64,000 bases of DNA from an uncultured Clostridia bacterium (GCA_964468725.1 CAYXVU010000002.1:993-64992); one strand, 5' to 3'; numbered from the stretch's first letter, positions 2 through 3,430 are shown. The notes: generated by a model from the letters alone, not told the origin. Made by a program: numbers and translations.

Positions 2-1150
2 AAAAGCTACACGGCGGCGGTCTTGATCGAAGAACTGTTGCGACCCGAAAACGCGGCGGCGATTTTGATCGTTGACCCGCACGGCGAGTACAACACTCTT
101 CAAGAGATTAAAGACGCGAAATTCCAATCCTACTTCACTGCCAAAGGTTACGCGCCGGAAGTGAAAATCTTTCGCCCCGAAAAGATCAAAGTACGCTTCG
201 ATACATTGGAATTCGCCGACATCTGTTACTTGCTGCCGGAACTGACCGACAAGATGCGCCACGTTTTGAATACCGCTTTTCGCGCCGTGCGCGACCGTTT
301 CAAACGCGGGCACTACACCTATCAAGACTTTATGGATGCGGTAGCCGAGCAGCGTTACGGCGATGAAAACGACCGCTCCGGTAATCTGACGACGATTGAT
401 GCGCTCGAATGGCGGCTCGATTCGCGCTTCGGTCGAGGATACTCGAAGCATCAAATCTTTTCCGATCACGAACACAATTTGCTGACCGAGATTTTCGTGC
501 CCGGTCAATGCACCGTCTTGCAACTCGTAGACATTGCCGAAAACGAACAGCAGGTCATCGTCGCCGCATTATTGCGCCGCGCCATACTGGCGCGCATGGC
601 GACGCACAAAGGCGAGGTAACGGAGGCGACCAACGACCGTTACCTGCCCTATCCAATCTTCGGATTGCTCGAAGAGGCGCATCGCTACGCGCCCGCAGGC
701 CGCGAAGTCGTCTCTACCAATGTGCTCAAGCAGATTCTCTCGGAAGGCAGAAAGTTCGGCGTCGGCATCGGTTTGATTACGCAACGACCGGGCAAACTGG
801 ACGCCGATGTGTTGTCGCAGTGCATGACGCAGTTCATCATGCGCATCGTCAATCCGATAGATCAAGATACGATTGCCAAAACCGTCGAAGGTGCAGGGCG
901 CAGAATGCTTGACGAGCTACCGGCGCTGACCAAAGGGCAAGTCATCGTTTCGGGAGTAGCGATCAACACGCCGGTCTTGTGTCAGGTGCGCGCGCGGCTG
1001 ACGAGTCACGGCGGCGAGACGATAGATGCGCCGGGCGAGTGGGCGAAGTGGAACTCCGCAGAGAGCCGCGCCCGCCGTGCCGAAGAGCAGAGCATCTTAG
1101 TCAAACCGCAACCGCCTTCGCGCGGGCGCATCGGCGGCATCGAGATTTAA
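2..1150 (+). CDS. HerA/DUF87-family (FtsK-HerA superfamily) ATPase, C-terminal part; the 5' end lies outside the window
   Basis: The reading frame is open from the window edge. The motifs LIVDPHGEYN and GLITQRPGKLD...SQCMTQFIMRIVNPIDQ are typical of the HerA central and C-terminal region. The stop is at 1148-1150. Confidence 0.6.
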   Translation, partial: KSYTAAVLIEELLRPENAAAILIVDPHGEYNTLQEIKDAKFQSYFTAKGYAPEVKIFRPEKIKVRFDTLEFADICYLLPELTDKMRHVLNTAFRAVRDRFKRGHYTYQDFMDAVAEQRYGDENDRSGNLTTIDALEWRLDSRFGRGYSKHQIFSDHEHNLLTEIFVPGQCTVLQLVDIAENEQQVIVAALLRRAILARMATHKGEVTEATNDRYLPYPIFGLLEEAHRYAPAGREVVSTNVLKQILSEGRKFGVGIGLITQRPGKLDADVLSQCMTQFIMRIVNPIDQDTIAKTVEGAGRRMLDELPALTKGQVIVSGVAINTPVLCQVRARLTSHGGETIDAPGEWAKWNSAESRARRAEEQSILVKPQPPSRGRIGGIEI

Positions 1151-1151
1151 G
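1100..1151. repeat. Left copy of a perfect 52-bp direct repeat (gtcaaaccgcaaccgccttcgcgcgggcgcatcggcggcatcgagatttaag). It is the native 3' end and stop of the HerA-like gene.
   Basis: The sequence is identical to 3379..3430. It encodes the C-terminal VKPQPPSRGRIGGIEI plus the stop codon. Confidence 0.9.
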
Positions 1152-1208
1152 CGGGCATCGCGCAGTCAGCGTATAATCGTCACACGTTTATCGTTTGAGG
1201 CTGGCAGA

Positions 1209-1382
1209 ATGAGTTTTCTAATTGAGATTGAGCGAGAAGAGGGCGGACGCTGGGTGGCCGAAGTCACCGATCTGCCCGGCGTGATGGTGTACGGACAAAC
1301 CCGCGACAAGGCCATCGTTCGCGTGCAAACTCTGGCCTTGCGCATCGTCGCCGACAGACTGGAACAAAGAAACCTTGCATAG
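1209..1382 (+). CDS. Small HicB-family (UPF0150) protein of 57 aa, below the ORF-track cutoff
   Basis: Its translation is MSFLIEIEREEGGRWVAEVTDLPGVMVYGQTRDKAIVRVQTLALRIVADRLEQRNLA. The pattern (I.IE.E.GG..A.VPDLPG....G.T..EA) resembles the HicB-like antitoxin fold. It lies 8 nt upstream of the MTase gene. Confidence 0.45.
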   Translation: MSFLIEIEREEGGRWVAEVTDLPGVMVYGQTRDKAIVRVQTLALRIVADRLEQRNLA

Positions 1383-1390
1383 GATCATAG

Positions 1391-2377
1391 ATGTCTAAAA
1401 TCAAAGAACAAACTTCCACCTTCGGGCGCAACAAAGAAACGCCGAATTTTTTCGGGCAGCCATTACAGCAAGGCACGTATAGTCACCTGAAACCCGACGA
1501 TATTGATGTAGCAACGCCAACACTTTTCTATTCGCATCCTAATGGACAGATATGGATAGGCGACGCGGTTGGGTGGCTGCAATCTCTGAAATCAGAGTCA
1601 GTAGATTTGATATTTGCCGACCCTCCATACAACATTAGAAAAGCCGAATGGGATAGTTTCGAATCGCAAAACGAGTACGTCAACTGGTCAATGCGCTGGA
1701 TTGAGCAAGCGTCACGCGTCCTCAAAAAAACCGGAACACTCTACCTTTGCGGCTTTTCTGAAATTTTGGCTGATCTCAAACTTCCTGCCTCGCGCCACTT
1801 TCAGGGCTGCCGATGGATGGTTTGGCATTATAAGAACAAAGCGAATCTCGGTAACGACTGGGGGCGTTCGCACGAAAGTATTTTGCATTTTAGAAAGAGC
1901 AAACAATTTACCTTCAACCTAGATGATGTGCGAATCCCTTATGGAAATCATACGTTGAAGTATCCTGAGCATCCACAAGCGGAATCCAGTCAATATGGCA
2001 AAAGTAGAGCGAATAAAAACCAACTCTGGCAACCCCATCCGAAGGGCGCAAAACCTAGAGACGTTTTGGAAATCCCAACCACCTGCAACAGCATGCATGA
2101 AAAGACGGCACACCCAACACAGAAGCCGGAAGAGTTAGTAAGAAAATTCGTGTTGGCTTCATCGAATCCGGGCGATTTGGTCATTGACCCCTTTCTCGGC
2201 TCTGGCACAACAGCAGTTGTTGCGCAGCAATTGAAACGCCGATGGGAAGGATGCGATATCACAATGGAATACTGTCAATGGGCGGCCAAACGCGTTGAAC
2301 TAGTCGAAGACTGGCCGATTGAGAAATGGATTCGTTACGATCTGGAAAATGAGCAGCGAAGGAAATCGATCCGATGA
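1391..2377 (+). CDS. Site-specific DNA methyltransferase, beta class (N6-adenine or N4-cytosine)
   Basis: Motif IV DLIFADPPYN lies near the N-terminus and motif I VIDPFLGSGTT near the C-terminus, which is the beta-class order. GC is markedly lower than in flanking DNA. Confidence 0.8.
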   Translation: MSKIKEQTSTFGRNKETPNFFGQPLQQGTYSHLKPDDIDVATPTLFYSHPNGQIWIGDAVGWLQSLKSESVDLIFADPPYNIRKAEWDSFESQNEYVNWSMRWIEQASRVLKKTGTLYLCGFSEILADLKLPASRHFQGCRWMVWHYKNKANLGNDWGRSHESILHFRKSKQFTFNLDDVRIPYGNHTLKYPEHPQAESSQYGKSRANKNQLWQPHPKGAKPRDVLEIPTTCNSMHEKTAHPTQKPEELVRKFVLASSNPGDLVIDPFLGSGTTAVVAQQLKRRWEGCDITMEYCQWAAKRVELVEDWPIEKWIRYDLENEQRRKSIR

Positions 2378-3330
2378 AACCAACGTCGCTTGCCGATTTG
2401 CAGGCCAGTGTGCAAGACCGATTCGCGTTCAGCAGGCTGGAGGATTACTTCACTCTGGGTTGCGAATTCCTCCGGTTAATAGACAGGATGCAGCCCACTC
2501 GGATTATCTCTCCTTCGCACGCGAACTATATTTTCTACCAATACAGCGCAGCCTATCGAAATCGAATTACCCGCCCCCTGAATGTGAATTTGTTTATTGA
2601 GGAGGCAGAAGAACTTGTAGGAGCAAGCGAAAGATTTGTCAGCTTTCTCGACGATTTGAAGCACCACAAAGCGGCGATTGCGACACGAAGGGCAAGTCGA
2701 AAATATATCGCTTCTAAAGAAATCAACAAAGTCATCTATACCTTGCAGCAAGCCATTGGCAGCATTGGGGATTCGTTCGAGAATGCAAATCAGTGTAGAA
2801 AAAGAGTAGGACAATTATTTGAAAACTTGGTCAAACTCGTCATCCAACAAATTGGCTTGGTGTGTGAGCCCCGCACCGTCAACATCCCGATAGCAGGGTA
2901 TTCTGATCGCAAGATGTCTTATGAATTAGATGTAGTCTTTACCCGAAGCAAGGTGGTTGTCGCAGCAGAAACTCATTTCATCCATCCTTCAGAAGTTGTC
3001 GGTTCCGTTAAAACGACAAGCAAGGATCGAATAGACAAGATATTCCTCGACAAATTTTTACTGACGAAACTTCTCGGCAGAGATATTCCCGTTGTCGCTA
3101 TTTTTCTCCATGATGTTCAGCGGGCGAACAAAGGCAATAGCATCTTTGGCATCAATTCGACTTTCAAAAGCAATCACTTTCTTGGCTACACTGTCGCGTT
3201 AAATCGCTTGGATGGCGTTTATTATGTTGATCCTAGACCGGAAATGTTCGACAACGAACGGTTGCGGGAACAGATCAGCGATTTTCAAGCTTTTTTGGTG
3301 AACGACTTATGGACTCTTTCAAACCGGTAA
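2374..3330 (+). CDS. ORFan of 318 aa, translationally coupled to the MTase; putative Type II restriction endonuclease
   Basis: Its ATG overlaps the MTase stop (ATGA). It is AT-rich like the MTase. No known family motif was recognised. YELDVVF...SEVVGSVK may be a weak PD-(D/E)xK-like signature. Confidence 0.45.
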   Translation: MKPTSLADLQASVQDRFAFSRLEDYFTLGCEFLRLIDRMQPTRIISPSHANYIFYQYSAAYRNRITRPLNVNLFIEEAEELVGASERFVSFLDDLKHHKAAIATRRASRKYIASKEINKVIYTLQQAIGSIGDSFENANQCRKRVGQLFENLVKLVIQQIGLVCEPRTVNIPIAGYSDRKMSYELDVVFTRSKVVVAAETHFIHPSEVVGSVKTTSKDRIDKIFLDKFLLTKLLGRDIPVVAIFLHDVQRANKGNSIFGINSTFKSNHFLGYTVALNRLDGVYYVDPRPEMFDNERLREQISDFQAFLVNDLWTLSNR

Positions 3331-3378
3331 GTTTGTCGAGTGGGGTTGCCTTGGCTCGTCGAAGTGCAATCGGTAAGG

Positions 3379-3430
3379 GTCAAACCGCAACCGCCTTCGC
3401 GCGGGCGCATCGGCGGCATCGAGATTTAAG
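3379..3430. repeat. Right copy of the 52-bp direct repeat; a non-coding duplicate of the HerA-like gene 3' end
   Basis: Perfect identity to 1100..1151. It flanks the low-GC cassette on the right side. Confidence 0.9.

Follow-up and report, generated by a model that had tools for sequence, protein, structure and literature searches.

A Type II restriction-modification operon flanked by a duplicated herA tail in a recurrently used slot of a Blastocatellia genome

Introduction

Insertion of restriction-modification (R-M) genes together with a long target duplication was reportedly described by Nobusato et al. in 2000. Here we analyse a locus of this type in a stretch of 64,000 nucleotides (GCA_964468725.1, CAYXVU010000002.1:993-64992; hereafter the window), in which an R-M operon lies behind the stop codon of a herA-like ATPase gene and is followed by a second copy of that gene's tail. 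For such insertions Furuta, Abe and Kobayashi (2010, PMC2853133) set out criteria: the restriction and the modification gene both lie within the insert, the insert is shorter than 20 kb, the repeat is longer than 30 bp, and no mobility gene is present. The published cases have perfect repeats of 45-47 bp and include repeats that overlap the 3' end of a gene; the Type II unit NTHI1459/1460 of Haemophilus influenzae, for example, is flanked by a 46-bp repeat overlapping a gene's 3' end (PMC2853133). The same study proposed a life cycle of amplification and excision for these insertions and also has a category of 'substitution by other RM genes' (PMC2853133).

The host of the window is a member of the Blastocatellia (Acidobacteriota), and the R-M operon occupies a recurrently used slot directly after the stop of a conserved solo herA-like gene. 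We think it probable that the operon is flanked by a long tail duplication originally of about 76-78 bp, of which 52 bp were kept identical by recombination, and that a truncated hicB gene travels with it as a passenger. We know of no earlier such case in the Acidobacteriota, for which the literature was not searched exhaustively.

Results and discussion

The repeat and the insert

The window contains an exact direct repeat, identical at 52 of 52 positions, with starts 2,279 bp apart (coordinates of all features are given in Table 1). The left copy comprises the last 16 codons of the herA-like gene (VKPQPPSRGRIGGIEI), its TAA stop and one further nucleotide, and the right copy is non-coding, as a preliminary description of this DNA had proposed. 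That description also raised the possibility of a REP-like element present elsewhere in the genome. Within the 64 kb of the window the 52-mer has no third copy at up to three mismatches, two matches were obtained in none of 100 shuffled sequences, and the repeat is herA coding sequence. Between the two copies lie 2,227 bp with three co-directional open reading frames (ORFs). Both a restriction and a modification gene are inside this insert, its size and its repeat fall on the expected sides of the published limits of 20 kb and 30 bp, and it carries no integrase, transposase or phage gene. It reads as an insertion with long target duplication, the configuration that the preliminary description had recognised from the work of Kobayashi and colleagues, and a sister lineage described below supplies the corresponding pair of filled and empty sites.

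With a GC content of 47.1%, the insert is the lowest segment of its size in the window (mean 56.4%, standard deviation 2.1%, for 2.2-kb segments). The R-M genes (1366-3330) have 45.8% GC against 56-57% in the flanks, and a GC content at third codon positions (GC3) of 0.49-0.50 against 0.65-0.68 in neighbouring genes. The insert is therefore AT-richer than its surroundings, as had been noticed by eye, but the earlier figures need correction: the 60 nt sampled at 1391-1450 do have 40% GC but are unrepresentative, and the flanks do not reach 60%. The 214 bp at 1152-1365, which comprise the hicB fragment and its 57-nt leader, differ from the R-M genes in having a host-like GC content of 57.5%. The drop in GC and the end of the hicB homology coincide at about position 1365.

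The R-M operon and the hicB remnant

The second ORF encodes a predicted methyltransferase that matches the full PF01555 domain, with a DPPY motif at residue 77 ahead of FLGSG at residue 268, and at its N-terminus homology to the other members of the family sets in at about the first 10 residues. Among proteins of solved structure (Protein Data Bank) its nearest relatives are M.MboIIA (E = 1.7e-41) and M.RsrI (8e-31), both N6-adenine enzymes; it shares with them the alignment over the full domain and the order of DPPY before FxGxG. The earlier assignment to the beta class, in a genuine R-M cassette, agrees with these results, and the enzyme is probably of the N6-adenine type.

The third ORF, previously regarded as an ORFan, is instead a predicted Type II restriction endonuclease (REase), identified by a PADLOC model. 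It has 1,667 homologues (about 70% identical) in Syntrophobacterales, Chloroflexi, cyanobacteria, Chromatiales and Blastocatellia, and a PF01555 methylase precedes them in every context read. The window protein retains all 112 invariant columns of the family. Its start overlaps the stop of the methylase gene (ATGA), so that the translational coupling noted earlier stands. The family profile matches Kpn2I (6EKR), an REase of the CCGG family, marginally (E = 0.0013, about 200 residues including K-T-[ST]-[KR]-[DE]-R-I). This link is weak and the predicted structure does not confirm it: the AlphaFold (AF2) model is poor (pLDDT 58.6) and gave no Foldseek match at E <= 0.001, its top weak matches being PD-(D/E)XK proteins. 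A search of annotated plasmids for a named homologue returned only hypothetical proteins with 34% identity. Taken together, the genes read as a complete, intact and functional-looking Type II R-M operon, and a putative role as Type II REases can now be given to the more than 1,600 'hypothetical proteins' of this family.

Outside the Blastocatellia, the family occurs in Chloroflexus aggregans (CP001337, 2732244-2743200; locus L164) at the head of an uninterrupted run of three methylase-endonuclease pairs; the second and third pairs have NotI-like and BglII-like endonucleases. In three Syntrophobacterales loci (L161-L163) it lies directly upstream of genes for an OLD-family ATPase/TOPRIM protein and a UvrD helicase, a Gabija-like pair.

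A recognition site was sought by comparing palindrome avoidance between loci with and without the R-M genes; no clear signal emerged, GAGCTC being only weakly lower. In the window itself several 6-bp palindromes are strongly avoided (observed/expected: GCCGGC 0/42, GGCGCC 9/52, CGATCG 1/28, CGGCCG 1/27, CCGCGG 2/28, CTCGAG 2/22, ATCGAT 1/18), and GATC, GGCC and CATG are likewise depleted, which suggests long exposure to many R-M specificities.

The first ORF had been described as HicB-like and counted as a part of the unit. The homology is sound: over the first 52 residues it shares 59-78% identity with PF15919 antitoxins of 66-68 aa, of the kind encoded in hicBA type II toxin-antitoxin modules. 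The alignment stops after ...ADRLE, where the window reads QRNLA-stop and the homologues read HGEAIPELDELFAVPA. These homologues have a HicA toxin gene immediately downstream, whereas in the window the methylase gene takes that place and hicA is absent. Lacking the C-terminal 14-16 residues and its partner, the ORF encodes neither a full-length HicB nor a neighbour of HicA, and is a remnant rather than a module or a working part of the unit. Nothing like its missing 3' end is encoded in any frame of the 48 GC-rich nucleotides behind the REase gene, and a hicB-like ORF is absent upstream of all other members of the R-M family. Because of the host-like GC, the break in homology at about 1365 and the lack of such an ORF in the other members, the insert is composite: its left 214 bp are what remains of the promoter-proximal end of a hicBA module, and the rest is an R-M unit that truncated it.

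The slot after herA in related genomes

A herA query against genome and metagenome collections returned no conspecific genome for the window, the best herA matches having 82-85% protein identity. In the closest clade herA and an FG-GAP-like gene are convergent neighbours, and the interval between their stops is highly variable. It is empty, with 20-49 nt, at L005, L006, L010 and L081 (herA 78-80% identical to the window's at the amino acid level); the preliminary description had asked for an empty site in related genomes, and for the window those available are inter-species ones only. The R-M family of the window follows herA in at least six other contigs, among them L004, L016, L020, L082 and the P0100 contig. 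In the first four of these the methylase is 72-75% and the REase 65-71% identical to that of the window, and the best identity of the window REase is 72.6%. In the P0100 contig the gap between herA and the methylase gene is 4 nt and the downstream gene is a different one. The pattern that was to speak for ancient acquisition, relatives carrying the same cassette between diverged flanks, is thus found in part: the family recurs at this locus, and other relatives are empty.

The two closest relatives hold an unrelated Type II R-M system in the same slot (L001, 11157-13594; L003, 6153-8623), in which an REase matching PDLC03454 (215-227 aa) is coupled to a methylase matching PDLC03310 (about 597 aa); neither has a flanking repeat. 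Other loci carry a DUF1800/DUF1501 pair, a sulfatase/FGE pair or a 470-aa ORF. In three pairs of loci (L001/L002, L003/L081 and L004/L005) the R-M genes replace a spacer of 9-41 bp exactly, from stop to stop and with no repeat, L002 and L081 being the matching empty sites for L001 and L003.

In a bootstrapped neighbour-joining tree of the REases, L082, P0092 and P0100 group in 60 of 60 replicates, the window joins L004 and L020 weakly, and all herA-linked REases form one group in 2 of 60. At least two lineages of the window's R-M family occupy the slot. Pairwise identities had at one point led us to regard the herA-linked REases as clearly independent acquisitions, a view that we softened, as the tree leaves all but one clade unresolved.

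Further duplications of the same gene tail

Two other loci carry a duplicated herA tail. In L082 a direct repeat of 78 bp (7051-7128 and 9112-9189; 77 of 78 positions identical) flanks a 1,983-bp unit of the window's R-M family. The empty site L022 carries one tail only (11049-11128), to which both copies of L082 can be aligned, and on either side it is collinear with L082 at 87-90% nucleotide identity; the two loci are a model example of the filled and the empty state of an insertion with long target duplication. In L152 a diverged duplicate of about 120 nt (316-439 and 1730-1855, about 75-80% identical) surrounds the 470-aa ORF, homologues of which also follow herA in L060, L099 and L108. 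The repeat ends at the herA stop codon in all three duplications, that of the window included.

L016 and L160 share the insertion of L082. The identity of their R-M genes (87-89%) equals that of the flanks, and in L160 the right-hand tail fragment after the REase gene starts at the same position as in L082; the insertion therefore predates the divergence of these genomes, which amounts to about 12%. Both L082 copies nevertheless share at least four derived substitutions that are absent from L022, L016 and L160, and they differ from each other at one position. Shared derived substitutions on an old insertion point to homogenisation of the copies within the genome by gene conversion. In every occupied locus, the old L082 lineage included, the R-M genes have a lower GC content than herA, and composition is for this reason no clock. 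Neither the identity of its repeat nor its composition, then, dates the insertion in the window.

Length and age of the duplication in the window

The right copy of the window does not end with the perfect repeat. The 24 nt preceding it (3355-3378) are 48% identical, in register, to the herA tails of 41 relatives, compared with 49% for the left copy and 26 +/- 7% for the null (p about 0.002), and the similarity vanishes beyond about position -76. A blastn match of the right fragment to herA of L001 begins at 3357, and the window and L082 align without a break across the methylase and REase genes and on into the right tail. The fragment is thus about 76 nt long. Among relatives the herA tail evolves fast from -75 to -52 (49% identity), and its last 51 nt are conserved (about 73%). 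The original duplication was probably of about 76 bp and the perfect 52 bp a conversion tract, whose sharp edge at -52 would arise because conversion was limited to the part that was still similar. The figure of 52 bp, previously taken as the size of the target duplication, does not hold on this account.

As an alternative, the whole three-ORF cassette could have been inserted recently and de novo with a duplication of exactly 52 bp, for example through staggered breaks 52 bp apart and fill-in. The perfect repeat would then be young, like the published ones of 45-47 bp (PMC2853133), the GC3 of the R-M genes (against 0.68) would be that of strongly un-ameliorated DNA, and the want of a close R-M relative would fit as well. 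Yet L082 has a repeat of 77/78 around an insertion older than the divergence of its relatives, and low GC persists in that lineage. Moreover, the 24 extra nucleotides match the window's own left copy at only 11 of 24 positions and are closer to the tails of other lineages, and the right fragment starts within about 3 nt of the place where the 78-bp repeat of L082 starts. We consider a recent insertion unlikely, and the earlier argument from a perfect repeat to a recent acquisition finds no support, given the conversion seen in L082. We also asked whether the herA tail of the window had been imported with the cassette from an L082-like donor, with which it shares the tail peptide KPQPPSRGRIGGIEI; a sliding-window identity scan of herA found no breakpoint, and we dropped the idea for want of support.

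A model for recurrent use of the slot

The reading that we favour, of an older and longer duplication maintained by recombination, can be put as a sequence of steps. A duplication of about 76-78 bp, as in the sister L082, would have been present from the start. Recombination between its copies would keep the conserved last 52 bp identical by gene conversion, and the fast-evolving 24 bp upstream would have drifted apart. Homologous recombination from repeat to repeat would excise the cassette cleanly and leave a pristine empty site, and the resulting circle could in principle re-integrate wherever a herA tail exists. Such recombination, combined with selection for a site between convergent genes where an insert does no harm, would lead to repeated use of the slot. 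If the R-M genes are active, the methylase would protect the sites of the host, and the endonuclease would presumably cut unmodified incoming DNA and penalise loss of the cassette.

Several points weigh against this reading. The empty site of the window itself and the age of its insertion are not directly observed, the nearest herA being only 82-85% identical, and products of excision or circles are invisible in assembled sequence. L004, L020, L001 and L003 are occupied by R-M genes without any repeat, so that a duplication is not required for occupancy. With a poorly resolved REase tree, one old insertion followed by many losses is inseparable from repeated insertions. Finally, the 24-nt extension rests on a single test (p about 0.002), and were that similarity due to chance, 52 bp would be the true duplication.

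A broader version of the favoured model, which we offer as a rather improbable conjecture, is that the herA tail gives small cassettes of the Blastocatellia, R-M units among them, a portable homology address: they would travel with 50-120 nt of a host gene's 3' end, excise and re-integrate by host homologous recombination alone, and have their repeats kept alike by conversion. If true, this would be a recombinase-free form of mobility targeted to a gene tail, and its interest would be compounded if HerA were functionally coupled to the R-M genes with which it overlaps in L082 and L016.

The shared end point of the three duplications could also be the mark of site-specific integration, with the herA tail as an att site, an integrase encoded elsewhere or lost, and an element that brings a replacement 3' end. 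Such a scheme would explain why herA remains intact and why one site receives two unrelated R-M families and other cargo. It is quite improbable, however, as no recombinase was found in any cassette or in the neighbours examined, and the inserts measure only about 2 kb. In addition, the repeat lengths differ (52 or about 76, 78 and about 120 nt), the four R-M loci named above have no repeat, and selection to keep herA intact would equally produce repeats that end at its stop codon.

The herA-like gene and its neighbourhood

The herA-like gene is conserved in relatives, where it stands alone and encodes about 564-588 aa. Its orthologues (62-82% identical) were collected from 157 related loci, all in Acidobacteriota/Blastocatellia assemblies. 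On the upstream side relatives have genes for an amidohydrolase and an RDD protein; in L005 (8069-11131) and other relatives the amidohydrolase gene lies divergently upstream of herA, and NurA is absent. Against the NCBIfam models of the repair and the anti-phage HerA, the ATPase of this clade stays far below either cut-off. The FG-GAP-like gene is the conserved right neighbour of herA in the closest clade, with orthologues of 41-50% identity (L001-L021, L081). Downstream the window continues with genes for a TPR-M48 peptidase, a DUF3857 protein, a betaine ABC transporter, a T2SSE ATPase, tRNA-Arg and an acyl-CoA dehydrogenase. Neither the insert, apart from the R-M genes themselves, nor the nine genes downstream include mobility or defence genes, the upstream side lying beyond the window. 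The neighbourhood is one of housekeeping genes, and the idea of a defence island, which had been suggested by the adjacent HerA-family ATPase, is not borne out.

In the P0100 contig, which represents another Blastocatellia lineage, the block of herA, methylase and REase genes is followed directly by an acyl-CoA dehydrogenase gene. A gene of the same type lies at 15251-16408 of the window, about 12 kb further downstream, which suggests that the genes in between were deleted or rearranged.

Several defence systems include a HerA-family ATPase (PADLOC HerA models), and the HerA-like ATPase could accordingly be part of, or a helper for, the adjacent R-M system, their juxtaposition being selected. 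Two unrelated Type II systems follow herA in the same orientation, at a distance of 0-45 nt. The methylase ATG of L082 and L016 even overlaps the herA stop (TGATG), so that in L082 the R-M genes may be co-transcribed with herA, and the gap in the P0100 contig is similarly small. We nevertheless hold functional linkage to be very improbable: the large majority of the 157 herA loci have no R-M genes, the R-M family is found apart from herA in Syntrophobacterales and Chloroflexus, in the window herA and the methylase gene have a hicB fragment between them, and the ATPase falls far short of the anti-phage models.

An assembly artefact, such as a mis-join with an element sharing the 52-bp stretch with the chromosome, is scarcely credible even though the relatives are all metagenome-assembled genomes and the source looks like one, because the same architecture occurs independently in L082 and L160 (other samples and assemblers), the family is at this locus in several genomes, 52 bp is no obvious k-mer length, herA is intact and the junctions are clean.

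Around the insert, a homologue of the hicB leader was found in no related locus, and a promoter scan did not call its TATAAT. Promoter and terminator scans, like an RNA fold of the junction region, stayed at background level. The spacer between the right repeat and the FG-GAP-like gene is four to nine times as long as the interval in empty-site relatives; it holds a 27-codon ORF (3484-3567), and no gene remnants or homology were found in it.

Table 1. Features at the left end of the window (positions counted from its first nucleotide)
Feature	Position	Strand	Remarks
HerA-like (DUF87) ATPase gene	23..1150	+	C-terminal 375 codons, start beyond the left end of the window; PF01935 (1.6e-24), NCBIfam/PADLOC HerA models
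Left repeat copy (herA)	1100..1151	+	Last 16 codons, TAA stop, 1 nt
Leader of hicB fragment	1152..1208	+	57 nt, GC-rich (GC 0.54); TATAAT at 1172
3'-truncated hicB antitoxin fragment	1209..1382	+	57 aa, GC 0.56; homologous first 52 codons, 5 unrelated codons, stop
Left edge of R-M unit	1366..1390	+	AT-rich leader; AGGA ribosome-binding site before methylase ATG
Predicted beta-class DNA methyltransferase gene	1391..2377	+	328 aa; PF01555 (1.8e-53), PADLOC MTase_II (4e-67)
Predicted Type II restriction endonuclease gene	2374..3330	+	318 aa; PADLOC REase_II PDLC03436 (1.6e-57)
Spacer after REase stop	3331..3354	+	24 nt, homology not detected; 20 nt in L082
Diverged 5' extension of right herA-tail fragment	3355..3378	+	About -75 to -52 of herA
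Right repeat copy	3379..3430	+	Non-coding
Spacer from right repeat to stop of FG-GAP-like gene	3431..3607	.	177 nt, low GC (45%)
Convergent FG-GAP-like gene	3608..4618	-	Weak FG-GAP Pfam matches

Comparison with known systems

The locus extends the poorly understood, recombinase-free mobility of R-M genes to uncultured soil Acidobacteriota. It also shows how flanking repeats should be read: a perfect repeat is not a clock, since its copies can be homogenised within the genome, and the duplication can originally have been longer than the part that is now perfect. As one gene tail has been duplicated repeatedly, in different lineages and with different cargo, the mechanism is open to testing. 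The mode of R-M insertion itself was known; what the present locus adds is the recurrent duplication of one tail, the presence of two unrelated R-M families in one slot, the concerted evolution of the repeats and the assignment of the REase family.

The closest described systems are the R-M insertions with long target duplication. The window shares with them an insert of about 2 kb that contains both R-M genes and no mobility gene, a GC content lower than that of the host, a long repeat, unique within the window, over the 3' end of the upstream gene and, through the sister pair L082/L022, a single-copy empty site in a relative. It differs in that at least three lineages have duplications of the herA tail, which vary in length and whose copies show concerted evolution, in that the insert carries a truncated hicB, and in that the empty sites for the window itself are inter-species only. 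Islands that target tRNA genes or other gene 3' ends and are bounded by attL and attR likewise have a repeat ending at the end of the target gene, leave that gene intact and reuse the site; unlike them, the inserts considered here have no integrase, are about 2 kb in size and vary in repeat length, and some occupied sites have no repeat. Finally, the locus resembles transfer hotspots with allelic substitution of R-M genes, such as hsd of E. coli, in that an interval between convergent genes holds varied R-M systems, other cargo or nothing, and in that R-M units replace a short spacer exactly. Where it departs from these hotspots is that some occupants of the herA slot are also flanked by a duplication of the tail of the left core gene.

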